Shown one piece after another: positions 8,925 through 42,244 of a DNA stretch of 64,000 nucleotides. Under the pieces are notes generated by a model. It was given only the letters and a program-made list of their open reading frames with translations, did not search any database and was not told the origin of the DNA. Each line of letters opens with the position of its first letter. Position 1 is the stretch's first letter. The stretch is from the sequence record OR352948.1. One strand, given 5' to 3'. Source of the DNA: Escherichia phage AV118. Position numbers and translations under genes: made by a program.

Positions 8925-8960
8925 ATAGGTCTATTATATCATAATATTTAGAGACCTATC
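8925..8960 (-). promoter_or_regulatory. Promoter/stem-loop cassette upstream of gene 55
   Basis: Inverted repeat ataggtct / agacctat bracketing a TGaTATAAT extended -10 on the minus strand. Confidence 0.4.
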
Positions 8961-9058
8961 TTAAAGCACGAGATACTATCAAAGATACGTAACTTTCATA
9001 AAGTTGTCGACTTAAAATTCACCAAACTTTTCTTCGGTTATAGCGATTCAAGATAGTT

Positions 9059-9286
9059 TCATTCTATTTCCTTTGCTGCAAATAAGGCAGCATCCAACGA
9101 ATCAAATTGGTCAACAAAATCAATATTTAACGCATCGTCAACCGTAGCATATAACCACCATTGTTTGAATTCATATTCAAGAATAAATCCAGGCCCTTCA
9201 ATCTGAGGAAGACCTAGGCTATTTGTACCAACTTCGTAACCAGCTAGACGGAGGTCATTAATCAAAGTTTCTGTTAATACGCTCAT
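9059..9286 (-). CDS. Hypothetical protein (55.x block)
   Basis: 75 aa acidic ORF. Confidence 0.45.
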   Translation of the reverse strand: MSVLTETLINDLRLAGYEVGTNSLGLPQIEGPGFILEYEFKQWWLYATVDDALNIDFVDQFDSLDAALFAAKEIE

Positions 9287-9615
9287 TTTACCGCCTTAAC
9301 AATTTTCAAGTCAACGAATTTTTTCTTACGTTGATTTTTCATACGACGGATAGTCTTTTCAGAGATTTCATGTTTCTGATAAGCTTTAGATTCAACACCA
9401 AATGCAGCAACGTCAAATTCAGAAAGAATATATTGTACTAGAATTTCACGAATAGAATTACGTCCAATTTTCTGGTCGTGTTTTTGCATGATTTCATAAA
9501 GACGGAATTCCCACGCGTCAAGAACTTGAGGAGTAACAATATTGCCGGATTCCAGAAGAGCAACAACTTTATCGAAAGCGAAAGAATTAACTACGTTTTT
9601 GATTTTAGTAGACAT
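9283..9615 (-). CDS. Hypothetical protein (55.x block)
   Basis: ORF with SD gaggaaa before the MSTKIKN start; directly downstream of the 48-bp promoter repeat. Confidence 0.5.
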   Translation of the reverse strand: MSTKIKNVVNSFAFDKVVALLESGNIVTPQVLDAWEFRLYEIMQKHDQKIGRNSIREILVQYILSEFDVAAFGVESKAYQKHEISEKTIRRMKNQRKKKFVDLKIVKAVK

Positions 9616-9634
9616 ATTATTTTCCTCGGTTATT

Positions 9635-9682
9635 TTATTATCCAATGAGAGCATTATACTCTGCTCTCAAGAGTTTGTAAAT
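9635..9682 (-). promoter_or_regulatory. Strong early-type promoter, copy 1 of a 48-bp perfect repeat
   Basis: Minus strand: TTTACA, 17 nt, TATAAT; the -10 sits in the loop of a gagagc/gctctc inverted repeat; identical 48-mer at 38307-38354. Confidence 0.6.
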
Positions 9683-9684
9683 CG

Positions 9685-9885
9685 TTATCCGAACTTTTTA
9701 GCGCCTTTCCAGCCTTCGTACATAACTGCACAAGTCAGTAGTACAGCATGCTGGCATTCTTTGTATTTGTAAATCCAGAACCAGCGTAAGAAGTCTTCAT
9801 CCTCAACGCCGTTGAGTTTCATATTGGCAAAGAATTCGGCACGTTCTTCACGAAGCTTTTGCGATAACATAGATTCAGGATTCAT
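9685..9885 (-). CDS. Hypothetical protein
   Basis: 66 aa ORF. Confidence 0.4.
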   Translation of the reverse strand: MNPESMLSQKLREERAEFFANMKLNGVEDEDFLRWFWIYKYKECQHAVLLTCAVMYEGWKGAKKFG

Positions 9886-10016
9886 TTTGTGTTCCAGGCC
9901 CCATTTTCATCGATGAACTTAATCCAGTCATTTACAGACCATTTAGTTGTATCGCCCTTTGGATTAACATTTAAAGTATATAATCCCTGCTTAAAAAGCA
10001 TTCGTTTGATATTCAT
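9882..10016 (-). CDS. Hypothetical small protein
   Basis: Internal start MNIKRML preceded by SD gaggaaa. Confidence 0.3.
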   Translation of the reverse strand: MNIKRMLFKQGLYTLNVNPKGDTTKWSVNDWIKFIDENGAWNTK

Positions 10017-10023
10017 AATTTCC

Positions 10024-10317
10024 TCAACTGTAACGATAACATTCGTTAGCTTTACGTTTGGCTTCAGTATGAGAAGTATTATAATCATAATCTTCTTTAC
10101 TGTAAACATCTTTTTTCAACTTACGAACTTCTTTGCGGAGTTGTCGATTCATTTCATTCTTGACTTCAGAATCAACGCCTTTCATACGTTTCCATTTATC
10201 TGAGCGGAAGATGTTTTCAACCATGTCTTTGTGGCTAACACCGTCAGGAGCTTTACGCTTACCAAAATAGTCGTAATCGCGAACTTTCAAATCTTTACGA
10301 CGATATGTTTTACCCAT
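10024..10317 (-). CDS. Hypothetical basic protein
   Basis: Lysine/arginine-rich ORF; SD gagg before the MGKTYRR start. Confidence 0.4.
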   Translation of the reverse strand: MGKTYRRKDLKVRDYDYFGKRKAPDGVSHKDMVENIFRSDKWKRMKGVDSEVKNEMNRQLRKEVRKLKKDVYSKEDYDYNTSHTEAKRKANECYRYS

Positions 10318-10324
10318 AAGTACC

Positions 10325-10612
10325 TCAGAGGTTGATTGATACAATGCGTTTGATAAAATTCACTTCACTTACTGAAAGGTCTTTAAGACCGATTGATTCT
10401 AAACGCTGAGTAAGCGTCAACATCGTGATATAGTCCCATTGTGTTTTAGACGTTTGATAAGTACGGACGCCATTAGCAATTTCAACATGCAAATCGGAAA
10501 TGGTAACGAATACCGGTCGCTCGTCATTAACTTTAAGGGTTAGAACAACTTTCTTTGAATCTAAACTAATCATTTTATTTTCCTCTGTGGTAGATGGTGT
10601 TAATCTTAACAT
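10325..10612 (-). CDS. Hypothetical protein
   Basis: 95 aa ORF. Confidence 0.45.
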   Translation of the reverse strand: MLRLTPSTTEENKMISLDSKKVVLTLKVNDERPVFVTISDLHVEIANGVRTYQTSKTQWDYITMLTLTQRLESIGLKDLSVSEVNFIKRIVSINL

Positions 10613-10740
10613 ATCTATCGAGGATGTAAACTGTTTTATGAAAATATTTTTTGATTTGAGAGGGGCACAAGGAGATAGTGAAGTGAAGATTCCAATGGAT
10701 TATATTAGAAATGAGATAAAGAAGACCAGGCGGCACCTGG

Positions 10741-11374: not shown

Positions 11375-11845
11375 TTAATCATGTTTCCACACCCCATCGG
11401 TATTTGACCAAAGTCGCTGATTATCTGATCCTCGCCACAGCTTTTTAGTCGGAAGATTTTTCTCATACTTCCCATCAATAATAACATCAACATATTTAAG
11501 CATTTCTAGTTGTTTAATATCTTCAAAATTATATCCTGTCCACAACCAAATGCTTTTATTGGGATAAAGATTTTTAATAGTTTGAACCACAGAGTGAATC
11601 ACATCTCTGTTATCAGGATAGAGAGGGTCACCTCCGGTTATAGTCAATCCTTCTATATAATCATTATTCAAACATTCAATTAATTGTTCTAGTGTTTCAC
11701 CAGTGAATGGAATACCATTTCTAGCATTCCATGTTGATTTATTATAACACCCTTCGCATTTATGCAAACAACCCGTAACGAAAAGAACGACCCTGCAACC
11801 AGGGCCATTCACAAAATCGCAAGGATAAAATCTATCATAATTCAT
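11375..11845 (-). CDS. nrdG: Anaerobic ribonucleotide reductase activating protein NrdG (radical SAM)
   Basis: 156 aa with CxxxCxxC cluster (CLHKCEGC); same size as T4 NrdG. Confidence 0.9.
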   Translation of the reverse strand: MNYDRFYPCDFVNGPGCRVVLFVTGCLHKCEGCYNKSTWNARNGIPFTGETLEQLIECLNNDYIEGLTITGGDPLYPDNRDVIHSVVQTIKNLYPNKSIWLWTGYNFEDIKQLEMLKYVDVIIDGKYEKNLPTKKLWRGSDNQRLWSNTDGVWKHD

Positions 11846-13659
11846 TGGTGTTTAACCCTATGCATGATTTCTTTATTTTTACCGAGATTAAATCCGCGTT
11901 CGTTCGGATTTCCCAAATAACCGCATGTTCTTCTTATGGTGTTCATCTTTTTAGGATCAGTTTCTCCACAGATAGAACAAACAAATCCGTTTTCAGTAGG
12001 AGTCATTTCATGGGTACTTCCACATGTAAAACATTTATCTACTGGCATATTAACACCAAAATAATCTAAATGTTGTGCAGCATAATCCCACACGGCCTCA
12101 AGTCCTTTTAAGTTATTTTTCATATCAGGAAGTTCAACATAAGAAATGTGACCACCTGTCGCAATGAAATGATATGGCGCTTCACGAGAAATCTTTTCAA
12201 ACGGAGTAATATTTTCTTCTACTGAAACGTGGAAACTGTTAGTGTACCAGCCTTTATCGGTAACATCTTTTACACTTCCATATTTTTCTGTATCGAGTTT
12301 ACAGAAGCGATAACAAAGGTTTTCAGCAGGAGTCGAATATAAACTAAAAGCAAATCCAGTTCTTTCGGTCCACTGCTTAAGATGAGCATTCATTTTAGTT
12401 AAAATTTCTTGCCCAATATCACGACCGACAAGAATATTCAATTCGTGAATACCAATGTATCCTAAAGACACTGAACTTCTACCGTTTTTAAATAACTCAA
12501 TTATGTCGTCATCAGGTTTAAGACGAACCCCGAATGCACCTTCTTGGTAAAGAATAGGAGCTACAGTTGCTTTAACACCCTTTAAAGAACTAATTCTACA
12601 CATCAAGGCTTCAAAACACAGATCCATTCGTTCATTGAATAATTCAACAAATTTCTGTTCATTGAACTGTGTTCCAATATAAGAATCTAATGCGATACGA
12701 GGAAGATTCAGTGTTACAACGCCGAGATTATTACGACCGTCAAGAATTTCATTTCCAGTTGAATCTTTCCATACGCTCAAGAAACTACGGCAACCCATCG
12801 GAGAAACTGGAACTGAAGAACCGGTAATAGCTTTATTATTCTTAACTGAAATAATGTCAGGATACATTCTTTTGCTTGCACATTCTAACGCAAGTTGTTT
12901 AATATCATAGTTTGGATCATCTTTATAAAGATTAACACCTTCTTCAAAAAACATAACAAGCTTAGGGAAAATAGGAGTTATTCCATCACGTCCAAGGCCT
13001 TTAATGCGGTTTTTAAGAATTGCCTTCTGAATCATTCGTTCAGTCCAGTCAGTTCCTGTACCAAATGTAATTGTTACAAAAGGTGTTTGTCCGTTTGAAC
13101 TAAAGAGAGTATTTACTTCATATTCATAAGCTTGGAATGCATCGTATACATCTTTTTCTGTTTTAGATTGAGCATAATTCAACGCATCAGCGATTTGCCA
13201 TTTTTCTGCATCCTCAATATGTTTTGCATAGGTGCGTTTAACATAAGGAGAAAGTACTTTATCTACATTAGCAAAAGTCGTTCCGCCGTATTGATGGGAA
13301 GCAACCTGTGCAGTAATTTGTGCCATAATTGCAGTAGCAACACCGATTGATTTAGGAGTTTCAATCTGTGCATTACCAAGCTTAAATCCATTCTCAAGCA
13401 TTCCTTTTAAATCTACTAAACAGCAATTAGTAAAAGGCAATGATATACTGTAATCTAAATCGTGAAAATGAATTAATCCGACATTATGAGCATTTACAAT
13501 ATGGCTCGGAAGAATACTACAAGCGATATGTTTAGAAACAATACCGGCCATTAAATCTCTTTTTGTTGGAAAGACACGAGAATCTTTGTTGGCATTTTCG
13601 GTATTTAATTCTTTATCTTTATTTGAAATAAAATTTAAAACATCTTTCTCTAAAGACAT
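11842..13659 (-). CDS. nrdD: Anaerobic ribonucleoside-triphosphate reductase NrdD
   Basis: 605 aa, C-terminal zinc ribbon (CFTCGS...CSICG) and glycyl-radical tail (RTCGYLG); uninterrupted, no intron. Confidence 0.95.
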   Translation of the reverse strand: MSLEKDVLNFISNKDKELNTENANKDSRVFPTKRDLMAGIVSKHIACSILPSHIVNAHNVGLIHFHDLDYSISLPFTNCCLVDLKGMLENGFKLGNAQIETPKSIGVATAIMAQITAQVASHQYGGTTFANVDKVLSPYVKRTYAKHIEDAEKWQIADALNYAQSKTEKDVYDAFQAYEYEVNTLFSSNGQTPFVTITFGTGTDWTERMIQKAILKNRIKGLGRDGITPIFPKLVMFFEEGVNLYKDDPNYDIKQLALECASKRMYPDIISVKNNKAITGSSVPVSPMGCRSFLSVWKDSTGNEILDGRNNLGVVTLNLPRIALDSYIGTQFNEQKFVELFNERMDLCFEALMCRISSLKGVKATVAPILYQEGAFGVRLKPDDDIIELFKNGRSSVSLGYIGIHELNILVGRDIGQEILTKMNAHLKQWTERTGFAFSLYSTPAENLCYRFCKLDTEKYGSVKDVTDKGWYTNSFHVSVEENITPFEKISREAPYHFIATGGHISYVELPDMKNNLKGLEAVWDYAAQHLDYFGVNMPVDKCFTCGSTHEMTPTENGFVCSICGETDPKKMNTIRRTCGYLGNPNERGFNLGKNKEIMHRVKHQ

Positions 13660-14471
13660 AATTCTAATTTATCCTTTTGAAATTCTTCGTCTAAATATGG
13701 GTTCCAACCCATTTTAAACCTTTTGATGAAATTATCAATTCTAAATTTCGGTAAATTTAACTCCGCAAAAATAGATGATTTACTTTTAAAATCTGGACCT
13801 AAATAATCATATAAAATTTCTGCGTATTTTAACCATAATATATAAGTACCAGATTTAATTGCTCTAGGAGTTTTCCAAGGTTTTACGCCGTACATCGGAT
13901 TTCCACTTCCTTTATGCCTGATAGAAGATGAAATTCCAATTTTAATTTTAGCTTCCTTTGTGTGCGAAAATCCATGATGTGGATTTTCTTTCCAGTATTT
14001 TTTAGAAGCTTCTGATATTTTCTTTCTGGCTAAATTAGTATGATGCTTTCCATAAAATCCATGATTTTTACCTTTATTACGATTTCTTTTAATCATGGTT
14101 ATTGATTGCTTTTCTCTAGTTTCTTTAGAAGGAGAAACACCGTACGTTGTAAATTGACCATTAGCATATGCTAAATTAAAATACTCTTTATTCCATATAT
14201 CTTTTTCTATATTCTTTTGAAATTCAGCTTCAATGCTAGTTATTTGTTCATCTCCGACTAATTGAAAATATAATATTTCAACTTTCGGTGTTTCTTTCAA
14301 CAGAGCTTTTTGAAATTCGGAAGATGACGAAGACGAATAATAAAATTTACCATTTTTATCAATAATATTCGTTCCGTCAAAAGTGCAATTGGTTTTACTT
14401 CCAATATAATAATATGGCGGGGTTTTAGCATTAATTCTACTAATAAATGATAGTTTATATACTACATTCAT
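13650..14471 (-). mobile_element. Free-standing homing-endonuclease-like gene (Seg-like), paralog of 1946-2836
   Basis: N-terminus VYKLSFI...YYYIGSK, shared EYFNLAYAN segment, C-terminal repeats GKHHTNLARKKIS and HGFSHTKEAKIKIG; ATG abuts the gene 49 stop (TGAATG); inserted between 49 and nrdD. Confidence 0.45.
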
Positions 14472-14941
14472 TTTAAACTCTTTCTAAGCTGCTTCTTAAA
14501 TGAAGCTATTAATTGTGTTTTGGTGTCAGATTCATTATATTCAAATCCTCTTTGAAGCATCTCGGCCATCATTTCCTCTTTTCCTAAACGAGAAAATTCC
14601 TTTGATTTATCTCCAACGAAGTTAGGGTGAATATTATTTTGGGTGTAATCGGATTTTAAATAAGTAAGTAAATTTTCTAACCATTCAAGATAATCAACGC
14701 CTTGTCCCTTTAAACCAGAGCGATTAAATTTATGTTTCATTTGACCTTCTGCAGCATTGCAGAGATTACAAAGCAATCCACGTACCTTTCCTGCTTTTGG
14801 TCCATTTAATTCATGGTCATGATCGAGGTGATTAGCTTGAACATCAGGATTTAGTTCTCGTTGGCAAATTAAGCATTTACCGTTTTGTGCATCATAAAAT
14901 TTCTGTTTTTCTTCTTTATATAATTTGCCAGTCAATAACAT
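14468..14941 (-). CDS. 49: Endonuclease VII (Holliday junction resolvase) gp49
   Basis: 157 aa, same length as T4 endo VII; Cys/His zinc site (CLICQ...HLDHDHE...CNLCN). Confidence 0.9.
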   Translation of the reverse strand: MLLTGKLYKEEKQKFYDAQNGKCLICQRELNPDVQANHLDHDHELNGPKAGKVRGLLCNLCNAAEGQMKHKFNRSGLKGQGVDYLEWLENLLTYLKSDYTQNNIHPNFVGDKSKEFSRLGKEEMMAEMLQRGFEYNESDTKTQLIASFKKQLRKSLK

Positions 14942-14983
14942 AATAAAACCCTTACCTTAAATAGATAAGGGTATTTATTATTT

Positions 14984-15469
14984 TCAAGTATTGTAAAACA
15001 TTTGATGCAATCGCTTATATTGCCGAATCATTTGGTCAGAAAAAGAAATTTGAGTTTCAAGCCATTCAATGTATTCTGCGGCAGCTTGCATCAGGTTACC
15101 TTCATAGCCATCGTTATTTTCTTGTGCAGCTAATTTAGCTAATGCGTATGAAATACGTTCACCTTGAAAATCGGCTTTAGGCTTCTGAACAACTTGATTA
15201 GTTCGCTCTACAACTTCTTCAATTTCGCCATTTTCGACTGATTCAGTATTCCACAAACACCAATACGTAATTGGCTTATCGTAGATGTTAATAATCTTTC
15301 CATCAGAAAGTTCAATTTCAATAATTCCAGTATCAGGTTCTATATCATCTTCACATTCTTTTGCAAGTTCACGAACTTTAAAGACAGTACCTGCACTAAG
15401 TTCCGGCCAGTAATTACACAGCCCTGTATCAGCACGATTAATTCTAAACCACTTATCTACTGTAATCAT
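14984..15469 (-). CDS. Hypothetical protein (pin/49.1 position)
   Basis: ORF with SD ggag before the MITVDKW start. Confidence 0.45.
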   Translation of the reverse strand: MITVDKWFRINRADTGLCNYWPELSAGTVFKVRELAKECEDDIEPDTGIIEIELSDGKIINIYDKPITYWCLWNTESVENGEIEEVVERTNQVVQKPKADFQGERISYALAKLAAQENNDGYEGNLMQAAAEYIEWLETQISFSDQMIRQYKRLHQMFYNT

Positions 15470-15592
15470 GTCCCATCTCCATATCAATTAAGTCATTTAT
15501 CGTTGGTTCATTATACACCGTTTCTTCATCAGTGTAAACCGGTTCTTCCGGCTCTGGCTCTACAGTTTCCCATCTAGCCGCCCACCAAGGTT

Positions 15593-15913
15593 TTATAGCG
15601 TAATCCATTCTCTTACTGTCTGAGTTACTACACGTTCTCGAAGCTCAACCAGTTCAACGGTAGGAACTGCATAATACCAATCAGAATGGTAAGAACCTGA
15701 GCGAGATTCATTTACAGCCACATGTACATTATGTTTTGGACTAAAATAAACACACTGACGATATTGGCATTTACCATCTTGCACCCAGTCTTCTATTTCG
15801 ACAGGTTTAAGATAATCGGAAAAATCGAAATCATAGTTTTCTGAAAATGCATCATGGTCTTCAATGATTTCACTCAGAACTGCATCAACATCTAATTTAT
15901 TTTCAATAGTCAT
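15593..15913 (-). CDS. Hypothetical protein
   Basis: 106 aa acidic ORF. Confidence 0.45.
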   Translation of the reverse strand: MTIENKLDVDAVLSEIIEDHDAFSENYDFDFSDYLKPVEIEDWVQDGKCQYRQCVYFSPKHNVHVAVNESRSGSYHSDWYYAVPTVELVELRERVVTQTVREWITL

Positions 15914-15923
15914 TTTTCACCAA

Positions 15924-16133
15924 TTAATTTCGCAATTTATTAAGTTCTTCATAATCAATCCAGGATTCTAATCCTGATGGCAAATCAGATTCAATTTCCC
16001 AAAGAAGTTCTTCAATTTTATGAAGACGATCTAGTTCTTCAGCAGGAATAGTAACCATTGACGGAGCTTTTGCTACATTAATATCGTAAATCATATTTAC
16101 CCCAGTTTGACCATACAATCGCCGTATTTCCAC
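15924..16133 (-). CDS. Hypothetical protein
   Basis: 69 aa ORF. Confidence 0.4.
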   Translation of the reverse strand: MEIRRLYGQTGVNMIYDINVAKAPSMVTIPAEELDRLHKIEELLWEIESDLPSGLESWIDYEELNKLRN

Positions 16134-16312
16134 TTAGAAATAGACTTTTCACCGTTAGAATAATAAACTTCAAGTTTAGCACGATTATTTTTAATTTGAA
16201 TAACCTTTGCTGTCATCAAAGTTCCATACCCATAATAAACTGCAACTTCATCACCTACATATACCGCGCTTCCGCGGTAATCGTGAATATAGTCAGTTCC
16301 TTCGAGCATCAT
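16097..16312 (-). CDS. Hypothetical protein
   Basis: 71 aa ORF. Confidence 0.4.
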   Translation of the reverse strand: MMLEGTDYIHDYRGSAVYVGDEVAVYYGYGTLMTAKVIQIKNNRAKLEVYYSNGEKSISKWKYGDCMVKLG

Positions 16313-16572
16313 TTAAAATATTCTCGCAGTTGGTCAAATCCACCAATATGACTTCCATCAGGAGCAAATACTTGTGGCATTGTCAAACCAATTTGAGTAT
16401 CACGACCTAGTTTAGCCAGAAGCTCAGCGATTTTCTCATCATCAAAAACACCTTTTTCCGGCATAATGTTGATAAATTCAAACGGCTGTTTCTTCACGGT
16501 CAAAAGACGTTTTGCATTATCGCAATACACACATTTATGAATGTTGCTATCATAACCATATACTTTAAACAT
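16309..16572 (-). CDS. nrdC: Thioredoxin/glutaredoxin NrdC
   Basis: 87 aa with CVYC active site; essentially identical to recalled T4 NrdC. Confidence 0.9.
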   Translation of the reverse strand: MFKVYGYDSNIHKCVYCDNAKRLLTVKKQPFEFINIMPEKGVFDDEKIAELLAKLGRDTQIGLTMPQVFAPDGSHIGGFDQLREYFK

Positions 16573-16594
16573 ATTATTCCTTAATTCCTAGTAC

Positions 16595-16816
16595 TCATTT
16601 AAAAGTCTCGTCGTAATCAAGACTTTGGCCCGTTTGTTCTTTATGTTTGTATATAATATCACTTACTTCTGATAGCATATTTTTATATGAACGAGTTAAA
16701 GCAGATTTAAGCACGCTGTATCTATCAGGAAATTTACCATGTTCATTATAATACGCTATTGCTAATTCACGGACTGCCTTTTCAGCAGTCTCCGTATATT
16801 CTTTACGCTTTGTCAT
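16595..16816 (-). CDS. Hypothetical protein (nrdC.1-like)
   Basis: 73 aa ORF. Confidence 0.45.
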
Positions 16817-16818
16817 TT

Positions 16819-17208
16819 TTAATCCAAAATATTATTAGGCATTGGTTGAACACTCACAAGTTCTTTAAAGAACTCAGTAGAATCAGGCAATTTAACCATT
16901 TCCGGAGCATGCTTACTGAATTTATGTTTACATTGACGGCATTTATATTCAAGCTCTGGTTTACGCCAGTTAATCAATTGAACTTGTTCAGTACCGCATT
17001 CAGGGCAATTAGGAACGTTTTTAGAAGCTCTTTCACGTCGTTCAACCATAGCCATAATAGCATCCCATGCTGGAGGTTTAAAATCTAAATCGTCGCAGCC
17101 GTGAATCTTTCCACGCATTTCCATATCATCTTCCTCACCAGCCATAATAATTTTAATTAAACTGGAATTACTTGAAGCTGCAATGTCTTCTAATAAACGC
17201 TTTTTCAT
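16819..17208 (-). CDS. Zinc-ribbon protein (nrdC.2-like)
   Basis: 129 aa with CPECG...CRQCKH. Confidence 0.5.
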
Positions 17209-19798: not shown

Positions 19799-19814
19799 GT
19801 TTTACCTCCAGTAG

Positions 19815-19854
19815 TTGATAGGTCTATAATAACATAACCATAGACCTTGTAAAC
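19815..19854 (-). promoter_or_regulatory. Promoter/stem-loop cassette
   Basis: Plus strand ttgataggtctataataacat...gtaaac; minus strand gives GTTTAC -35 and a TA-rich -10 inside a ggtctat/atagacc inverted repeat. Confidence 0.4.
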
Positions 19855-31178: not shown

Positions 31179-31183
31179 AATTT

Positions 31184-33198: not shown

Positions 33199-33884
33199 TA
33201 CCAGCCTTCCATAGGGAATTCCAGATAAACTTGAGCATTGACACGAATTTCATTGGTAATCTTTTTAACTCGGTCTGTATTACGAGATACACGTCCGAAC
33301 CAACGCCATCCGTTACTAATTGCACGAGAACCAGTGTGCCATGTTTGCCAATCAAATTGAAGAAGAGTACGGTCTGGAGCTTCCCATTTCTCTAGTTCGC
33401 CTTTTTCGATTTTTTCGAGGACTTCTTTGTGCCACTGGCGATAGATAAGTTTGCCATCAGGAATCTGACTGAACTCTGCAGTTCCTGTTGCAAAATGAGT
33501 AGGACACACATCAGCGTTAACAAGACCAAGAATATGTTCAGACAAATAGCGAGGATTGTCATAGTCAGGTTGTCCTGCAGTAATAAAGTGTTGACCAACT
33601 GGAATATCAGGGCGTGGAACATCGTCATGGTGATATCCAGGAATAGCAGGGTACCAGCCAGGCATCAGCATGTGGACTCGTGAATCAAATACAACATCCG
33701 AGTCTTTCCAATCGTCAGGGAGATTTTGGATAAAGCTACGAGTAATTGGACCGCCATTATCAAAAGCAAAATTCAAATCGCAATTAAAGAACATAGGCTC
33801 GTTTTTAATCTGGCCATTTTTAATCGCATGAGCAAAACCACCTACTGCACGAGCTTGACTATTAAACACTTTAGAACTATTCAT
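33198..33884 (-). CDS. Hypothetical protein
   Basis: 228 aa, His/Asp/Trp-rich; no family assignable by eye. Confidence 0.45.
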   Translation of the reverse strand: MNSSKVFNSQARAVGGFAHAIKNGQIKNEPMFFNCDLNFAFDNGGPITRSFIQNLPDDWKDSDVVFDSRVHMLMPGWYPAIPGYHHDDVPRPDIPVGQHFITAGQPDYDNPRYLSEHILGLVNADVCPTHFATGTAEFSQIPDGKLIYRQWHKEVLEKIEKGELEKWEAPDRTLLQFDWQTWHTGSRAISNGWRWFGRVSRNTDRVKKITNEIRVNAQVYLEFPMEGW

Positions 33885-33885
33885 A

Positions 33886-34191
33886 TTATTTTCCTCGGCA
33901 TTCTTTAATGAAATTTTCTAGATTGGTAGATTCAATAGCTTTTTTACGAGCTTCTGCATGTTCTTCTTCGGACAATTTACATTTATAATTGACCCAGACA
34001 TTATGGTCGAAACTAGTCGTGGCATATAATAACAATGCTCCAACGAATAGCAAAAACGGTGATAAGAATACAAAACCAGGAACACCATCCATACTGTAAG
34101 CCTTTTGTAATACTGCAACAGAAAGAGCTGCGTAAAAAGGTGATGCAAATATTGTTAAAAGACCAATTCGGTTGGTTTCGCCTAATTTCAT
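33886..34191 (-). CDS. Membrane protein
   Basis: 101 aa with two hydrophobic helices; SD gaggag. Confidence 0.45.
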   Translation of the reverse strand: MKLGETNRIGLLTIFASPFYAALSVAVLQKAYSMDGVPGFVFLSPFLLFVGALLLYATTSFDHNVWVNYKCKLSEEEHAEARKKAIESTNLENFIKECRGK

Positions 34192-34204
34192 AATATTCTC
34201 CTCA

Positions 34205-34249
34205 TGTTTTAATAGGACTACTATAACATAATCCTATAATTATGTAAAC
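34205..34249 (-). promoter_or_regulatory. Promoter/stem-loop cassette
   Basis: aataggactactataacataatcctat...gtaaac. Confidence 0.4.
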
Positions 34250-35243: not shown

Positions 35244-35483
35244 TTAAATTTCGCGACATGCGATATCATATTCATCCCAGAGGTCATCATGTGAAGCCTC
35301 TACCAATGGAACGATTGTACCGTTTATGTCTTCATTATAAGGGCAAATTGTACAGTGCGCATCTTCGAATCGGATGCCTTTGTGTTCAGATTTTTTATAA
35401 CGCATATCGAATATCTTTGCAAACTTTTCACGAGTAATGGTTTTAGCAACCACTTTGGTTCCAATACTTTCATAATAAATCAT
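35244..35483 (-). CDS. Hypothetical protein
   Basis: Start MIYYESIG with SD ggag. Confidence 0.4.
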   Translation of the reverse strand: MIYYESIGTKVVAKTITREKFAKIFDMRYKKSEHKGIRFEDAHCTICPYNEDINGTIVPLVEASHDDLWDEYDIACREI

Positions 35484-35494
35484 CGTGGACTCCA

Positions 35495-35541
35495 TTTAAT
35501 TTGATAGGACTACTATAACATAGCCCTATCTTGTTGTAAAC
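35495..35541 (-). promoter_or_regulatory. Promoter/stem-loop cassette
   Basis: ttgataggactactataacatagccctatc...gtaaac. Confidence 0.4.
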
Positions 35542-36034: not shown

Positions 36035-36340
36035 TTAGCACAACGCAGAAGACGAAACCCAAGCACCTTCAGTAATAACGTAACCATTACCTTCACGCTT
36101 AACATCGCCACCGTTATTTTCAATTTCATTTTTCATCCACTGGGATACGATTTCACCCTTAGGATAATAAGTACGACCGCTACCATAATCACCTACAGAA
36201 AATGATACGGCATATTGGTCTGCGATCTTTGTTGCTTCTTCTTCGATACGTTCAGATTGATTCAGAAGTTTATAAATTGCATCTGAAGCAGATTTGGCAT
36301 CATTAAACTCTGGTACTTTAATTTCAATAATCTTACTCAT
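36035..36340 (-). CDS. Small protein, paralog 3 of 3 (C-terminal GWVSSSxxC family)
   Basis: 101 aa ending ...ITEGAWVSSSALC. Confidence 0.5.
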   Translation of the reverse strand: MSKIIEIKVPEFNDAKSASDAIYKLLNQSERIEEEATKIADQYAVSFSVGDYGSGRTYYPKGEIVSQWMKNEIENNGGDVKREGNGYVITEGAWVSSSALC

Positions 36341-36696
36341 TTTCTACATTCCTTAATAAAGTTTTCGATTGTTTCATTTTCACGTCTAGCTAGGAGTTCA
36401 TTATAACTAATCATTTGAGAAGCGTAAATCTTTTTATTTTTCTTGTTATGGTAAATAAAGTCATAGTAAAAATAGACTACAGTACAAAATGATGCGATGG
36501 ATGCAAAGGCTTGGGTATACCGTAAGTCCTGCCATTGGTCTGTGAATCCGCCAGTGTTCCCTATAAATCCTAACACAACGCCGTCAATAAGAAATCCAAC
36601 TAATCCAAAGGCAAATCCCATGCCAATACTCATAATAAAAATTAGAATGTTCTCACCAAGAGAAGGCCATACGGTTAAGAGTTGAGGCTTTTGCAT
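36337..36696 (-). CDS. Membrane protein
   Basis: 119 aa with hydrophobic helices; SD aaggaaa. Confidence 0.45.
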   Translation of the reverse strand: MQKPQLLTVWPSLGENILIFIMSIGMGFAFGLVGFLIDGVVLGFIGNTGGFTDQWQDLRYTQAFASIASFCTVVYFYYDFIYHNKKNKKIYASQMISYNELLARRENETIENFIKECRK

Positions 36697-37037
36697 CTTA
36701 TTTCCTTAACGAATTCCATAGCTTCTTCATATTCATACTTTTTAACAACTTCATCATACTGAGCTTGGGCTTTTGCGCACTGAACTTTCCATTCACGAAC
36801 TCGAGCTCTGTGATGACGGCCTTGGTACCAATATCCCACTCAGTTAATAGGCATTAATAAAAATGGCACAATAAACGACCCGGCTATAATAAGTAAAAAC
36901 ACTGCATCAGACGATATAACTTTATTGGAATCTAAAATAGCTCCTATAATCATAAAGATTAAAAATGCTAAAGCTAAAATAGGGCCAAATAATACTTCGT
37001 TTGGGATTAATTTACGTTTGTATTCGTATGCCCAGGC

Positions 37038-37639
37038 TTAATTGGCATGTACAGGGTTGGCTTTGACATATTCTCTACATTCCATAATAAATTGCTCAAG
37101 GATTAAATTGTTAGTGAAATTAGGACTAACAACCATAGTTTCATAAAGCGCATCAATAGCACTTAAAGCATCAACTCTTTTAAGCAAAGGCTTGCCTTCA
37201 TACATAGTTTCAGAATCGACGATTAAAGTGAAGTAGTATTTTTTATTATCGACTAGAACTTCTGTATCGATATAAAACATATTAGACCTCAGAAGCTTAT
37301 CTCTAAAACCATAATAATCTTTAGAGCGTTCGCTGATATATTCCCATTCAGTGTTTAAACAACAAACAGACCATGTAGGAGCAACGAAATCGGTGAATCT
37401 AATATCATGGTCTGCAACTAGTTTAGCAATAGCTCCGATATCATGAATCATAATACCTGGGGCTAATAAAGATTTTCTGCTATGGCTAGCCGTTTTCTCA
37501 GTAGTCTCATAAGAAGACGACCAGTACCATTTACGTCCAGTTGCAACATATCGTAATGAATCAACTAAAGACGTAGGTGGATTTACCTTATCTCGGAACT
37601 CTTCGAACATTGAGTCAATATCATTATTTTGGTTTCGCA
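37038..37639 (-). CDS. Hypothetical protein
   Basis: About 200 aa from MRNQNN with SD aaggag; no recognisable motif. Confidence 0.45.
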
Positions 37640-37661
37640 TGTTAACTCCTTTATTATCCAA

Positions 37662-37688
37662 AAGGAGGACCGGAGTCCTCCGTATTAT
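37662..37688 (-). terminator. Rho-independent terminator
   Basis: Minus-strand hairpin ggaggac-uccg-guccucc followed by UUUU, directly after the stop at 37690. Confidence 0.45.
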
Positions 37689-37689
37689 T

Positions 37690-38283
37690 TTATTTCAAAG
37701 AGTTAATATATTCTTGTACATCAGCAGAAGTGGTTTCGACACCAGCTGGAGTGCCATTGAACGTTTCAACACGAGTCAGAGTGTCTTCGATATCAACCTT
37801 AGTCAGTGCAGCGATTTCAATTACATCATCGGCCGTAGAGATACCAAGGGCATTAGCTGCTCGAGTTTCACGAATGTATTCGAGTTTGATTGCCAGATTC
37901 TGACGAGCATCATCAAGTTCAACCACCTTACGAGCAATTTCAATTCGCATAGCGGCATACCCGTCAGCTTTTGTATTAAGTTGTTCGGCAGTTCGACGAT
38001 ACAGAAGACCAAGCTTAGCATGCATGGTAACATCTTGTCCTTCAGCCAAGAGCTTACGAATTTCACGTTCCTTAGAAGCGGCTTGCTTGTTCTTTTCATT
38101 AACAAGTTCGCGAATACGTTTTTCTTCATTAATAGATTTAACAGAAGCCGTTTTTAGTTCTTTGATTTGGGTAATCAACTTATCTGCAGCTGCGTTATAC
38201 TGTTCTTCGACAGTCAGATTTTTAGCCATAGCAGTACCCAGTTTAGTGCGGATGAATTCAACAAGTTTTTTCAGTGTGTTCAT
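37690..38283 (-). CDS. Coiled-coil protein of unknown function
   Basis: About 197 aa from MNTLKKL; heptad-rich central region; driven by the second copy of the 48-bp promoter repeat. Confidence 0.5.
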
Positions 38284-38306
38284 ATTATTACCTTTCAATT
38301 GGTGGT

Positions 38307-38354
38307 TTATTATCCAATGAGAGCATTATACTCTGCTCTCAAGAGTTTGTAAAT
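38307..38354 (-). promoter_or_regulatory. Strong early-type promoter, copy 2 of the 48-bp perfect repeat
   Basis: Identical 48-mer to 9635-9682 (TTTACA, 17 nt, TATAAT on the minus strand). Confidence 0.6.
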
Positions 38355-38581
38355 TATTTTTTAATCAAATTGACATAAAACTCGGCGTCTTCCGGGTGCA
38401 TGCCTTCACAGTATTCTTCAACCATGAACTTCTTAACGGCTTCATAAGGACCACTCAGATTAAGCTCAGTTGTCCAGAACTTGGAATCTTGGACTGAATC
38501 GATACGAACTTCAGGGTGACGGTTGCGAATAACTTCTTCAGTGTATTCATAATCAACGACATCAATACTAACTGTAGCCAT
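38354..38581 (-). CDS. Hypothetical acidic protein
   Basis: 75 aa ORF; SD gaggag. Confidence 0.45.
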   Translation of the reverse strand: MATVSIDVVDYEYTEEVIRNRHPEVRIDSVQDSKFWTTELNLSGPYEAVKKFMVEEYCEGMHPEDAEFYVNLIKK

Positions 38582-38588
38582 TTTGTTT

Positions 38589-38640
38589 CTCCTCTGTAGT
38601 TGATAAGTCTATAGTATCATAGACCATAGTTGTTGTACAT
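38589..38640 (-). promoter_or_regulatory. Promoter/stem-loop cassette (variant)
   Basis: ctcctctgtagttgataagtctatagtatcatagac...tgtaca. Confidence 0.35.
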
Positions 38641-38648
38641 CATTATTT

Positions 38649-38954
38649 TTAATTTTTCCAACTTAACAACTTGTAGTGTCCTTCATTAATACGTGGTTTA
38701 TCCCAAGAAATACTAATATATGATTCACTGTCAATAGAAGTCGTTTGGTTTTTCTCTACCGTAAGACCTTCACTTTCCAGCCATTCAATAGTATTTGCGC
38801 ATAAATCAGAAGAACACCTCATTGGAAACCGGCAAGATTTTTCACCTTTAGCTGCAGTGTTATACATCTTTTCTAAAATACGCTTTTGCACGTTTTTAAA
38901 AATAGTTTCAGCAGATTCTTCAGATTTTTTATTCAGTTCAGTGTAAAGACTCAT
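38649..38954 (-). CDS. Hypothetical protein
   Basis: 101 aa ORF; SD gaggaaa. Confidence 0.45.
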   Translation of the reverse strand: MSLYTELNKKSEESAETIFKNVQKRILEKMYNTAAKGEKSCRFPMRCSSDLCANTIEWLESEGLTVEKNQTTSIDSESYISISWDKPRINEGHYKLLSWKN

Positions 38955-38962
38955 AACATTTT

Positions 38963-39011
38963 CCTCTATGGTTGATAAGTCTATAGTATCATGTCCTTAG
39001 AAGAAGTAAAC
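38963..39011 (-). promoter_or_regulatory. Promoter/stem-loop cassette (variant)
   Basis: cctctatggttgataagtctatagtatcat...gtaaac. Confidence 0.4.
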
Positions 39012-39044
39012 ATCTTTATGAAATATTTTTATGCCCTAGATACC

Positions 39045-39071
39045 AAAAGGCCCCAACCATAAGGAAGGGGC
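39045..39071 (-). terminator. Rho-independent terminator
   Basis: Minus-strand gcccc-loop-ggggcc followed by UUUU, downstream of the ORF ending at 39078. Confidence 0.45.
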
Positions 39072-39077
39072 ATTCTA

Positions 39078-39542
39078 TTATTTAATTTGTTTAGCAGACC
39101 AGATACGGTCTTTAATAAGTTTTTGGATATCTTCAACATACTCAAGGCTATGAGCGTGAGGATTATCTTTGAAGCTATGTGCTCGTGCCAGTTTCTGTCC
39201 TTCTGTTTTGATTACTAAAAGCTCTTTAAGAATTGCTTCATACTTAGAAATAATTCCTTTGGCGATATTTTTTTCTTGAGCTGCTTTAGGGTCCACTTTT
39301 GGCGCAGGTGCTTTACCTGTAGCTTTCTGGAACAATTCACCTGATGCAGCTAGGCTTTTAAAAACTCGGCTAACAGTATTAGCATTAGTAAAACCTTCGG
39401 CTTTAAAATCTCTAATAAAACGGAAACGTTCTTCATCAGAGGCGTCTTTGTAAGAATATTTACCTGCTTGAATTGCTGCAATCGCAGCGGCTTTTACATC
39501 TGAACTAGATTGTTCAGTCAAAAATTCAGCGTATGATTTCAT
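39078..39542 (-). CDS. Internal-protein-like head protein (divergent capsid-targeting N-terminus)
   Basis: Starts MKSYAEFLTE|Q, the same pattern as the other IP-like genes; Ala/Lys-rich, 154 aa. Confidence 0.45.
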   Translation of the reverse strand: MKSYAEFLTEQSSSDVKAAAIAAIQAGKYSYKDASDEERFRFIRDFKAEGFTNANTVSRVFKSLAASGELFQKATGKAPAPKVDPKAAQEKNIAKGIISKYEAILKELLVIKTEGQKLARAHSFKDNPHAHSLEYVEDIQKLIKDRIWSAKQIK

Positions 39543-39587
39543 GTTGCTTTTCCTAAGTTAATTAACTTATCTATTTATTATTATGCC

Positions 39588-39615
39588 AAAAAGCCCCGAC
39601 CTTTCGGAAGGGGCT
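39588..39615 (-). terminator. Rho-independent terminator (repeat of 24464-24491)
   Basis: Same agcccc...ggggcu hairpin plus U-run on the minus strand. Confidence 0.55.
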
Positions 39616-39926
39616 AAGCCTTGCGGCAACCTTGTCGGGGTTCCACCTGCTAAGGCAAGTGTTTGTACGAAACGCCGGGATTCGAACCCGGTTATTAAGC
39701 AGTTGACGCTACTCAATATTTTTAAAAGGCCATATCTCGACCATATCCGAACGTTCCGTCAAAAACGCTACTCGGCTTACGGCAAAGATATTTCCTCGAA
39801 TCGATAATTCGGTGCGCCGTTTCTGCTGTGATATAAGGGGGCATTAACAAAACATAAAGATTTATTAATGCCAGTCCTTACTCAGGGAACATCAGTCCGA
39901 CGACTTACCGGTAGCGACCCGGCTTC

Positions 39927-40271
39927 TTATTTTGACATATCATCAATTTGCTCTCGACGCCGACGCCATAGATTAATCGCTTCATAAACACATTCTGCGT
40001 TTGGTATATGACGGCAATAATATAATGATTCGCGTTTCTGGAATCGATGTTGCAATTGGATTTCGTTTAAAAGGTCTTTACGGTCAAAGTATTCAAAACT
40101 AGTTAACCTGGAACGGTTTTTAATGAACTTCCAATGACCAAATTCATTTTGAACATAGATGTAATCTGCATGTTGGTATAACAAATTAATCAATCGGTCT
40201 GAAATAACTGTATCATGTTCGTTAAAATAAAACGTTAAATCATGAACTACTAAGTAAACATTACCTTTCAT
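39927..40271 (-). CDS. Hypothetical protein
   Basis: Start MKGNVYLVV with SD gaggaaa immediately downstream of tRNA-Arg. Confidence 0.4.
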   Translation of the reverse strand: MKGNVYLVVHDLTFYFNEHDTVISDRLINLLYQHADYIYVQNEFGHWKFIKNRSRLTSFEYFDRKDLLNEIQLQHRFQKRESLYYCRHIPNAECVYEAINLWRRRREQIDDMSK

Positions 40272-40289
40272 ATTTTCCTCACTTAAAAT

Positions 40290-40366
<77 letters not shown>

Positions 40367-40466
40367 ATGATGCGGCTTTGGGTGTTTCAGTGTTACTCGT
40401 TTGTAGGTTCTACTTTTAACCCTTATTCGAACAACTTACCTACCTAAGAGCGTACTCACCGCGAAT

Positions 40467-40541
40467 TGGTGGCCCTGGCTGGTTTCGATCCAGCTACCTA
40501 TCAGTTATGAGCTGACAGCTCTCCCATTGAGCTACAGGGCC
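40467..40541 (-). tRNA. tRNA with CAT anticodon (Ile-lysidine or Met)
   Basis: Hand-folded cloverleaf: acceptor ggccctg/cagggcc, D-arm gctc-aatggga-gagc, anticodon stem gtcag/ctgat with loop ctCATaa, T-arm gctgg-atcgaaa-ccagc, encoded CCA. Confidence 0.7.
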
Positions 40542-40637
40542 TAAATAACTTTCTATTATGAAAGGCACTTGAGGGAGCACCTTTGGTAATAGAGGGTAGA
40601 TTAATAATAACACATAATTCTTAAAGCAAATTACGTT

Positions 40638-40928
40638 TTACCGTACCATATTAATGTAGTTATATTCAATGCAACGTAATTTCAAAGGGTTCTTGAAAAT
40701 ATCATATTCAAGAGGGCCTTTTTCTGTTTCAATAAAGAAATCAAAGTTAACTGTGTTAAATTTAACGTCTTCACAGAGTAATTTAACTTGTGAAGATGAA
40801 CGGTCGATATAAACCTTTTCAACCTCAAAGATAGTCAGAATACCGTAGTCATTAACCAGTGCTTTAGCTGCACGTTGGTCGCTTTCATATCCGTTCTCAA
40901 TGGACGATACTTTAGCATAAAGAATCAT
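40638..40928 (-). CDS. Hypothetical protein
   Basis: 96 aa ORF. Confidence 0.45.
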   Translation of the reverse strand: MILYAKVSSIENGYESDQRAAKALVNDYGILTIFEVEKVYIDRSSSQVKLLCEDVKFNTVNFDFFIETEKGPLEYDIFKNPLKLRCIEYNYINMVR

Positions 40929-41287
40929 GAATGTTCCACCATTTCAAAGGTATGAGCATCAACAATATGATACCAGTCAAAATTTTCTTCCGCGTTTTTA
41001 TAAATTTCGCGAAGAGCTTCAACAGTTTTTCCTGTAGCAACAAGATCGTCAATACCACCAAGAGGATAACAGTAATAACCAGCAAACAGAAGGAAATTAA
41101 TAGTTTCTGTAGGTTCTGGATGCAGAACACCGTTATCATCTACCACTTCAAAGAAAGTGTAAGAAGGAGTACAAGTTTTAATCCAAGCCCATGCTTGGGC
41201 TGCTGAATCAAATGGACTGCGTATCAAACGACAATCAGGGTCTTTAGAAGGATTTGCTTCAAAATCCGCATATACGTGATATTTCAT
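40925..41287 (-). CDS. Hypothetical protein
   Basis: Start MKYHVYADF with SD aaggtga. Confidence 0.45.
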   Translation of the reverse strand: MKYHVYADFEANPSKDPDCRLIRSPFDSAAQAWAWIKTCTPSYTFFEVVDDNGVLHPEPTETINFLLFAGYYCYPLGGIDDLVATGKTVEALREIYKNAEENFDWYHIVDAHTFEMVEHS

Positions 41288-41288
41288 T

Positions 41289-41474
41289 TTACTCACCTTT
41301 TGCAATTTTATCCATAACGATAGCGATTAAGCCGATTAGAAATGCTACTACCAATGAGATAGAATTTTCTGTTGTTGTCAGTAGTCCACAAATGAATCCT
41401 ACAAACATCGAAAAACTAAAAGCCATTGAAGCAATTACTACAGCAACATTACGAATCAGTTCAGCGCGTTTCAT
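41289..41474 (-). CDS. Small membrane protein
   Basis: Single hydrophobic helix; SD ggag. Confidence 0.4.
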   Translation of the reverse strand: MKRAELIRNVAVVIASMAFSFSMFVGFICGLLTTTENSISLVVAFLIGLIAIVMDKIAKGE

Positions 41475-41495
41475 TTTATTTCTCCATTTACTCAT

Positions 41496-41541
41496 TTGTT
41501 TTGATAGGACTACTATAACATATCCCTATAGGCTTGTATAC
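41496..41541 (-). promoter_or_regulatory. Promoter/stem-loop cassette
   Basis: ttgttttgataggactactataacatatccctat... Confidence 0.4.
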
Positions 41542-41543
41542 CT

Positions 41544-41807
41544 TTATTTCAAATATATTGCGTATTTTTTATAGCCACCAGGCTCGTGTCGAAGACCTTT
41601 ATCATTCGCAAAACGTTGAATGTTATTGAACTGATTTTCATCAAGTTCGGATGTGTCAAATACGAAAAAGTTTCGTTTGTTACCAAGCGTGATATGCGGA
41701 GTTAAGTCAATGTTATACAAATTAAGAATATCAGCAATAACCTGATTGACCGCTTTGTTAATTTTCACACCAGATGATTCTGAGATGAATTCGTTGAAAG
41801 TTTTCAT
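41544..41807 (-). CDS. Internal-protein-like head protein with capsid-targeting N-terminus
   Basis: From the internal start MKTFNEFISE|S. Confidence 0.55.
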   Translation of the reverse strand: MKTFNEFISESSGVKINKAVNQVIADILNLYNIDLTPHITLGNKRNFFVFDTSELDENQFNNIQRFANDKGLRHEPGGYKKYAIYLK

Positions 41808-41823
41808 TTTAGGTTCCATTTGG

Positions 41824-41869
41824 TTGTTTTGATAGGACTACTATAACATAGTCCTATCGTGTTGTAAAT
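41824..41869 (-). promoter_or_regulatory. Promoter/stem-loop cassette
   Basis: gataggacta-ctataaca-tagtcctatc, a 10-bp inverted repeat. Confidence 0.45.
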
Positions 41870-42180
41870 TATTTTATGCCTTTAGAAGAAATGGTATTTT
41901 GGCGTTTGACCCCTGTTTGTGAAAAATCGTGGTTATCGATTTGGTCGACTCGCATAACACCAAATGCAGATTTAATTTTAGCCTTTGAACCTTTTTTAAT
42001 ACTAATTACCATATAAGTATCATTTTTCTTATATTCGAAATTTGTTACTTCAACGCCTTGATTAGAAATTGACTTAATAATAGCATTAGCGTATTCATCA
42101 TCTAACGGACCGGTGGTGTTAATAATAAAATTTTTATCGGCTTTAGTAGCTTCAGCGATAAACTCTTGATAAGTTTTCAT
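41869..42180 (-). CDS. Internal-protein-like head protein at the ipI locus
   Basis: Starts MKTYQEFIAE|A; immediately upstream of 57B, as ipI is in T4. Confidence 0.6.
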   Translation of the reverse strand: MKTYQEFIAEATKADKNFIINTTGPLDDEYANAIIKSISNQGVEVTNFEYKKNDTYMVISIKKGSKAKIKSAFGVMRVDQIDNHDFSQTGVKRQNTISSKGIK

Positions 42181-42195
42181 TTTATTTCCTTGAGG

Positions 42196-42244
42196 TTGTT
42201 TATTTGATAGGATGATAGTAACACACCATCATCCTTATGTAAAC
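42196..42244 (-). promoter_or_regulatory. Promoter/stem-loop cassette
   Basis: gataggatgat-agtaacacacc-atcatcc...gtaaac. Confidence 0.4.

Follow-up and report, generated by a model that had tools for sequence, protein, structure and literature searches.

Two described systems of T4-type phages come closest to the repeats considered here. The first is the promoter-early stem-loop (PeSL) cassette, described for RB49/phi1 (Arbiol et al. 2010, PMC2839356) and for T4/PST and KVP40/nt-1 (Comeau et al. 2014, PMC4122927). It is a repeated intergenic cassette of ~60-100 bp that packs together an A/T-rich region, an early promoter, a stem-loop, a Shine-Dalgarno sequence (SD), and ATG. The second is the SD sequestration known from the T4 genes e, soc, 49, and I-TevI, where long RNAs initiated upstream hold the SD or AUG within a helix and are translated poorly; a promoter inside the hairpin gives rise to transcripts that lack the 5' arm and are translated (PMC3014915). 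Here, we analyzed a 64,000-nucleotide stretch of Escherichia phage AV118 (sequence record OR352948.1; hereafter "the window", to which all positions refer) that carries 21 dispersed cassettes. They are T4-type early-promoter cassettes of the known PeSL kind, combined with the SD-sequestration logic known from e, soc, and 49. What is modestly new is that the anti-SD/SD hairpin at early promoters is kept by covariation across genera.

By sequence match, the window belongs to Mosigvirus, i.e., to the RB69-like T4-type coliphages: it matches Escherichia phage AV115, which is classified as Mosigvirus, at 99.5% over 19-29 kb, and many RB69-like phages match it too. This group is not among the phages analyzed in the PeSL papers, and our results extend PeSL-type cassettes to it. 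An initial annotation of the window had likened its repeats to PeSLs, and the likeness has held: the published anatomy is matched, and gene-content breakpoints are enriched at the cassettes. Specifically, the -35/-10 consensus is of the PST/T4 type (TTTACW-N17-TAYWAT), and the cassettes are concentrated in hyperplastic regions, near small accessory genes, and at indel boundaries. The commonest stem-loop classes of RB49/phi1 overlap the -10 or sit between -35 and -10, as they do here; a PST figure legend places stem-loops just upstream of the promoter, unlike here. In addition, conserved early-promoter and stem-loop sequences occur at the internal-protein (IP) loci of T-even phages (Repoila et al. 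1994, as described in PMC2839356), and several cassettes of the window likewise precede IP-like genes with an MKTYQEFIAE leader (repeat families D4/D6), although, going by that description, our cassettes differ in not being restricted to IP loci. They also differ from PeSLs in that the stems are A/U-rich and lack a U-tract, and in that a subset forms an anti-SD/SD stem kept by covariation, a function not proposed in the available text of the PeSL papers.

The initial annotation had proposed at least 16 copies of the cassette and listed 16. All 16 listed sites lie where it placed them, on the minus strand and 25-40 nt 5' of an SD and an ATG. From 15 of them, we built a two-block position-weight model (PWM) comprising the -35 hexamer and nTGn plus the -10. 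At a score of at least 17, the PWM finds 18 sites, every one of them on the minus strand, compared with a mean of 0.07 and a maximum of 1 in shuffles; in leave-one-out scoring, the 15 seed sites reach 15.2-22.9. In a direct-repeat search that used no seed, the six largest families (D1-D6) are the cassettes. Since they come back from this unbiased search as well as from the PWM, the repeats are present in a proper motif scan. The copies are thus real and strongly enriched, but the list of 16 changes on two points: the site at 8925 is not an early promoter, as discussed below, and at least five cassettes had been overlooked (30432-30494, 7499-7555, 10571-10631, and a pair with an identical 49-nt core at 9613-9682 and 38281-38354), for a total of 21 in the window. 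A generic sigma-70 scan (TTGACA/TATAAT) was uninformative, with 75 sites against 67 expected; among the promoter models tried, only the T4-specific GTTTAC/TGn one discriminates.

The proposed promoter, GTTTAC followed by a spacer and an extended -10, is upheld by this strand-specific enrichment and by co-orientation with genes: across the window and 18 related loci, 150 of 150 cassettes point along the gene strand. A GTTTAC-like -35 hexamer is found 16-18 bp 5' of a TAnnnT -10, except at 8925, which has no GTTTAC. The TG of the extended -10 is present in 18 of 19 analyzed cassettes, and the 25 nt 5' of the -35 are 73% A+T (63% overall). Read from 5' to 3', a cassette has, first, an upstream stop codon and an A/T-rich stretch. 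Next come the -35, a spacer of 17-18 nt, and TGn with the -10; around +1 there is a conserved AGNCCTATCAA motif, and an A-rich leader then precedes the SD and ATG. The SD contains GGAG in 13 of 19 cassettes and exactly fits the RegB/S1 consensus GGAGRAYARAA (PMC3014915) in three. In its promoter part, the cassette resembles the T4 "uber" early promoters (Hinton 2010, PMC2988021), with their GTTTAC-type -35, TGn, -10, A/T-rich upstream region, and extra conserved positions; the extra conserved motif here appears to be CTATCAA at ~+1, and the promoter part shows no difference from T4 early promoters. This CTATCAA(A/C) motif lies at ~+1 to +10 of most cassettes (e.g., 23963-23972), is conserved in the window phage and in T4, and is present even in the hairpin-free cassettes 21291, 21566, and 30465; it may be part of an extended T4 early-promoter consensus, or an initial-transcript signal. 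From these sequence features, we infer that the cassettes act as promoters in AV118.

Most of these promoters are accompanied by a hairpin (each cassette is named here by one position within its range, e.g., 24403). Of 19 cassettes, 8 have a perfect spacer-leader stem of at least 8 bp, where shuffled spacers predict 0.28 and never yield more than 3. RNA-fold z-scores from dinucleotide shuffles, computed for 14 cassettes, lie between -3.3 and -5.9 in seven and between -1.5 and -2.3 in four, and are ~0 at 21291, 21566, and 30465. Among 112 distinct cassettes from the window and its relatives, 40% reach a helix score of at least 8, compared with 2.5% in the null. A chance origin of the hairpins is ruled out by these stem, helix-score, and z-score nulls. 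The inverted repeat that had been ascribed to the cassettes is therefore significant at many of them, but no hairpin is found at 21291 and 21566, nor at the added 30465; the compact arrangement of promoter, stem-loop, and SD/ATG holds for ~16 of the 21, these three excluded.

The hairpins fall into two classes. The class A stem surrounds the -10 and leaves a gap of 7-17 nt to the SD, which stays outside; the members are 8925, 19815, 23959, 34205, 35495, 38589, 41496 (degraded), 41824, 42196, and the two copies of family D9, and their arms fit the AGNA-loop-TCNT motif reported for PeSLs. In class B, an anti-SD (TTCTCCTC-like) lies directly after the -35, within the promoter spacer, and pairs with the SD. 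At regB (14 bp) and denV (10 bp), the SD had been placed within one arm of the repeat; this is confirmed, and it extends to 24403, 30081, and 38963, with weak pairing at 10603 and a variant at 7526. For class B read-through RNA, predicted folding energies are -12 to -22 kcal/mol and the SD is entirely paired; for the cassettes' own transcripts they are ~0 kcal/mol.

The regB cassette (28046-28105; minus strand, like every cassette below) has a 14-bp stem, 28086-28099 with 28055-28068, that contains the SD GAGGAG and carries the -10 (28077-28082) in the hairpin loop (z -4.9). At denV (31176-31235), the 10-bp stem TTCCTCCAAG/CTTGGAGGAA contains the SD (z -5.2). The spacer TTCTCCTC pairs with the SD GAGGAGAA at 24394-24452 (z -1.5), and TTCTTCTA pairs with TAGAGGAA at 38952-39011 (z -2.2). 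Another class B cassette, 30065-30129 (z -4.5; breakpoints at 30057 and 30081), is near-identical to the denV promoter of the T4-group phage L007 and here precedes a 36-aa open reading frame (ORF), not denV; judging by this identity, it is the T4-group denV promoter detached from denV. The gene denV itself lies 1 kb beyond it, behind another class B cassette, and IP genes precede denV, unlike in T4. The weaker cassette at 10571-10631 (GTTTAC-N17-TAAGAT; PWM score 15.5) has a 5-bp TCCTC/GAGGA pairing that includes the SD. At 7499-7555 (GTTTAC-N18-TATAAT; PWM score 22.3; minimum free energy -15.2), the SD AAGGAG is paired with a CTCCTT anti-SD that lies 3' of the -10 and 5' of the nominal +1.

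Among class A cassettes, that at 23943-24003 has a 12-13 bp stem, TTGATAGGACTA/TAGTCCTATCAA, around the -10 (z -5.0); its SD, GGAGAACAAAA, fits the RegB consensus, and its orthologues carry compensatory variants. Stems of 10-11 bp at 41805-41869, 5' of an IP-like gene (z -5.9), of 11 bp at 35481-35541 (z -3.3), and of 10 bp at 34189-34249 (z -2.3; breakpoints in JS09 and L004) include one G.U pair each in the latter two, and the cassette at 42178-42244, 5' of an ipI-like gene, has a differing arm sequence, AGGATGAT/ATCATCCT (z -3.9). Shorter or degraded stems are found at 19796-19854, 5' of an nrdC.8 homologue (8-11 bp, SD free; z -1.9), at 38579-38640 (6-8 bp, weak -35 ATGTAC; breakpoints in RB69, mogra, and JS09), and at 41472-41541, the recombination partner of 34189-34249 in L004. 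The D9 copy at 9613-9682 (ATTTAC-N18-TATAAT) has an 8-bp stem, TGAGAGCA/TGCTCTCA, around the -10, and the second copy of this ATTTAC/TGAGAGCA cassette lies at 38281-38354, 5' of an e.6-like gene. The two share an exact 49-nt repeat (9634-9682 and 38306-38354), 28.7 kb apart, each followed by an SD and an ATG (9615, 38283); in the former copy, the longest-ORF start, 9654, lies within the -10 and is unlikely to be the true one. The hairpin-free cassettes lie at 21262-21331, 5' of an nrdC.10 homologue (z +0.9), and at 30432-30494, 5' of an IP-like gene (z near 0); that at 21550-21609 has no significant hairpin (z -0.15).

We scanned relatives with the same PWM, namely 16 IMG/VR contigs with regB homologues (RegB identity 40-97%), T4, AV115, RB69, mogra, and JS09. 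T4 regB, which is reported to use a typical early promoter (PMC3014915), is preceded by the same cassette. The regB hairpin is kept in 12 of 13 relatives from several genera (RegB identity 55-97%) with differing arm sequences, and in 12 of 13 sequences the read-through leader has a folding energy of -14 to -22 kcal/mol and none of the four SD bases is left unpaired, compared with 0 kcal/mol for RNA from the nominal +1. For regB, pairs were tabulated with anchoring on GGAG; a MAFFT alignment put the arms out of register. The SD/anti-SD half of the stem is invariant, and in the other half both partners have changed together from lineage to lineage: the window has CTAGTTG/CAACTAG, T4 has CTTGACTG/CAGTTAAG (two G.U pairs), and further relatives have CTTTATG/CATAAAG, TGTAAG/CTTACA, and a nested GGGCCAT/ATGGCCC. 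Compensatory substitutions occur at six stem positions (offsets -8 to -4 and -2). For denV, where GGAG anchoring misregisters T4 and L007, per-sequence folds were used instead, and the SD is sequestered in six of six distinct cassettes. Such compensatory evolution across genera shows that the predicted spacer-SD pairing at regB and denV is under selection.

Class A arms covary as well (GATAGG/CCTATC versus GGTAGG/CCTACC), with entirely different 15-bp arms in T4, and the nrdC.8 promoter carries a class A stem in the window and a 13-15 bp class B stem in T4. The sense fold is more stable than the antisense fold in 15 of 17 orthologue groups (p = 3e-4). After de-duplication, stem mismatches comprise 12 G.U and 4 A.C, a bias that is suggestive only (p = 0.08). 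Together, covariation, sense-strand stability, and the mismatch pattern argue for selection on the RNA structure of the transcribed strand rather than on a protein operator or a DNA cruciform.

The cassettes also coincide with changes in gene content. We compared the window with seven Mosigvirus sequences, counting events of at least 100 bp, which gave 40 distinct endpoints in 17-45.9 kb. Cassette junctions account for 6.6% of the sequence and hold 16 of these 40 breakpoints (binomial p = 2e-9); counted by junction, 10 of 16 cassette junctions are hit, compared with 8 of 52 other gene junctions (odds ratio 9.2, Fisher p = 5e-4). Gene-content breakpoints among relatives thus concentrate at cassette junctions, the association that the initial annotation had suggested looking for; our test of it among close relatives is quantitative, where the available text of the PeSL papers gives descriptive associations. 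Several breakpoint junctions have overlaps of 22-48 nt. In AV115 and mogra, a 587-bp IP gene is inserted between 35-nt repeats at 30412-30446 (leader and first codons), three relatives share a replacement breakpoint at 21312, and L004 lacks 7.26 kb by way of a chimeric cassette formed from 41496 and 34205. Other indels do not use cassettes (e.g., 32371-33601 and 36067-38694).

Six small genes have ~30 nt of 5' coding sequence in common, encoding an MKTYQEFIAE-like leader (30405-30434, 30729-30758, 31489-31518, 39513-39542, 41776-41807, and 42151-42180). These shared leaders look like the capsid-targeting sequences of internal proteins, and leaders and cassettes together would extend recombination homology into the coding region.

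Altogether, we consider it probable that the repeats are T4-type sigma-70 early-promoter PeSL cassettes that form hairpins on read-through RNA and serve as recombination sites. A single PeSL-type unit would join each sigma-70 early promoter (A/T-rich upstream region, -35 GTTTAC, 17-18 nt spacer, TGn, -10 TAnnnT) to a short leader rich in A, to an SD (in many cases a GGAG that RegB can cleave), and to a start codon. Because the 5' arm is always upstream of the -10, and so outside the cassette's own transcript, only read-through RNA can fold. Such read-through is expected, since terminators lie upstream of only two or three cassettes and the extension of early transcripts is an established T4 pathway (PMC2988021). 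In class B, the spacer-encoded anti-SD would hide the SD of read-through RNA, leaving it untranslated, and RNA from the cassette's own promoter would have a free SD and be translated. Since only own-promoter RNA frees the SD, translation of class B genes would be tied to the brief activity of their own early promoter. Both halves of this switch had been put forward in the initial annotation. For the anti-SD class, occlusion on read-through RNA has support from modeled folds and from compensatory changes between genera; it does not apply to class A, where the SD lies outside the stem; the free SD of own-promoter transcripts agrees with their predicted folds.

SD sequestration should probably also shield GGAG from RegB, an enzyme that secondary structure inhibits (PMC3014915, PMC1702504). 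The class A stem would most likely act as an intercistronic structural insulator or barrier on read-through RNA. As near-identical dispersed repeats of 35-60 bp, the cassettes would also promote homologous recombination, by which genes are inserted, deleted, and swapped. We infer this translational gate and recombination mechanism from the comparative data above. In modeled folds, class B resembles e, soc, 49, and I-TevI in that the SD is paired in long RNA and the 5' arm is absent from own-promoter RNA. Unlike in those genes, where a late gp55-dependent internal promoter delays translation, the internal promoter here is of the sigma-70 early type. Because it is early and not late, the predicted timing is reversed, with translation limited to the immediate-early period.

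The authors of the PeSL work held that the stem-loops are transcription terminators or attenuators that insulate cassettes from upstream transcription, a role that we regard as unlikely here. One RB49/phi1 PeSL stem-loop is reported to have cut lacZ expression about as much as the rrnB T1 terminator (PMC2839356), and PeSLs are termed promoter-terminator motifs (PMC4122927). In our cassettes, however, a T-run is missing after all 12 hairpins that span a -10 (the 8 nt that follow contain 0-4 T and are usually A-rich), the stems are A/U-rich and not of the GGGG/CCCC type that was tested, and the invariant part of the class B stem is the SD/anti-SD pair, which termination does not need. Because the stems are A/U-rich and have no U-tract, a terminator role is unsupported by the sequence, and the intrinsic-terminator reading of the cassette hairpins, which calls for a GC-rich hairpin and a U-run, was rejected on these grounds. 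That combination is met solely by separate hairpins at 24459-24492, 39040-39073, 39583-39616, and 21629-21645, and a separate GC-rich terminator hairpin just upstream of two or three cassettes (24459-24492 before 24403, 39040-39073 before 38963, and the terminator-like 21629-21645 before 21566) does favor insulation from upstream transcription there. The terminator at 24459-24492 (minus strand; GC-rich GCCCCGACCTTTCGGAAGGGGC, then a T-run; family D7) is itself a dispersed repeat: 39583-39616 is identical to it over 34 nt and 39040-39073 matches at 76%, and two of the three adjoin cassettes on the upstream side.

For class A, a role as RNA-stability elements is a more doubtful candidate: after a RegB or RNase E cut in the A-rich leader or GGAG just downstream, the stem would protect the 3' end of the upstream cistron's mRNA from 3' exonucleases. 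Class A stems do end 7-17 nt 5' of a GGAG that often fits GGAGRAYARAA, and T4 mRNA decay is influenced by the status of the 3' end (PMC3014915). Against this, the switching between classes A and B at orthologues (nrdC.8) argues for a shared function and not for one that needs an exposed GGAG. Translational coupling, in which the SD of read-through RNA is opened only by a ribosome terminating at the upstream stop and output of the downstream gene scales with that of the upstream one, is improbable, even though stop codons lie 2-18 nt 5' of the helix in 13 of 19 cassettes. At regB and denV, the first base of the stop codon precedes the main helix by 13 and 10 nt, which, by what is generally known of ribosome footprints, should be at or past the reach of a terminating ribosome and should leave most of the 10-14 bp helix closed; at three class B cassettes (24403, 38963, and 7526), the upstream stop is >50 nt away. 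Finally, we give very little weight to palindromes that act on DNA, as an operator at which a dimeric phage protein would turn early promoters off or as a cruciform that recruits recombination enzymes: the dyad is centered on or near the -10, the T4 early-promoter shut-off mechanism is described as not fully understood (PMC3014915), and breakpoints cluster in cassettes, but the arms differ between cassettes and lineages with complementarity kept and no conserved half-site, dyad position and length vary, the sense-strand bias of mismatches and fold stability is of the kind expected for RNA, the class B 3' arm is the SD itself, and homologous recombination requires the repeat alone.

Several observations weigh against the probable explanation, that of read-through RNA hairpins and recombination at early-promoter cassettes. 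Three cassettes have no hairpin and several stems are weak by z-score, so a hairpin is not a required part. In class A, the majority class, the stem leaves out the SD, and occlusion therefore does not explain most cassettes. Co-transcriptional translation, or RegB cutting of nascent RNA, could forestall folding, and structure-protected sites can still be cut in vivo (PMC1702504). The G.U over A.C bias loses significance with de-duplication. As for recombination, the L004 deletion could be an assembly collapse at a repeat, since L004 is a metagenome-derived contig, and part of the breakpoint enrichment could come from accessory genes travelling with their own promoters and not from recombination within cassettes.

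A wider claim can be put forward tentatively, and may well prove too broad. Early-promoter spacers, which otherwise face no constraint, would have been recruited as anti-SDs in several T4-like genera, with regB, denV, and others translatable only from own-promoter RNA, so that early-promoter shut-off would end synthesis despite read-through. RegB control, which comprises promoter shut-off and self-cleavage, would thereby gain a third, structural layer; the T4 reviews consulted describe the regB early promoter and self-cleavage, but not a regB hairpin. Interconversion of classes A and B at orthologous sites suggests a general insulator that would make each early gene autonomous and cassette-flanked genes freely exchangeable. 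Our analysis offers a candidate function for the stem-loop that differs from the published terminator idea. If true, it would account for the restriction of some early proteins of T4-type phages to the first minutes of infection despite read-through. It would also bear on annotation and phage engineering, since a gene moved without its cassette or placed behind another promoter would be silenced.

The cassette at 8901-8961 (minus strand, 5' of gene 55), which the initial annotation had counted among the early promoters, is instead the orthologue of the T4 middle promoter P55. It has no GTTTAC -35 and carries an 8-bp stem, ATAGGTCT/AGACCTAT, around TATAAT. P55 has a mapped start at T4 position 40180 (PMC2988021, Table 1), and its start base is the 7th nt after TATAAT, within the 3' arm of the stem. 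In 16 of 16 mapped cases, transcription from a T4 middle promoter begins 6-8 nt past a -10-like hexamer, which lends the promoter reading of the cassettes indirect support; the start is the 7th nt in P55, P55.8, PnrdC.7, and P1, the last of which the PWM also detects. A MotA-box reading of the site was rejected, the TGCTTTA box being 23 nt from the -10 and too far; the site still corresponds to the mapped P55. An intragenic PWM match at 11741-11769 (GTTTGCATAAATGCGAAGGGTGTTATAAT) is orthologous to T4 P55.8, a middle promoter whose start maps to T4 position 42805, and because it was matched, the early-promoter model evidently picks up some middle promoters too. Promoter features are absent from the T4 GenBank records NC_000866 and AF158101.

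The minus-strand gene order of the window is as in T4, from gene 45 through nrdC, tk, regB, denV, e, and the tRNAs to ipI; after ipI, there is a change to the plus strand and to late genes 53 through 15. A 273-aa ORF at 13650-14471, located between nrdD and gene 49, carries a homing-endonuclease annotation in AV115 and has no counterpart at this position in RB69, and the largest block differing from RB69 (13600-17181) adjoins it. An Rfam search matched only two tRNAs. These are the sole tRNA genes (40293-40366 and 40470-40541), compared with eight in T4, and the region flanking them (39688-40640) differs among all relatives compared.

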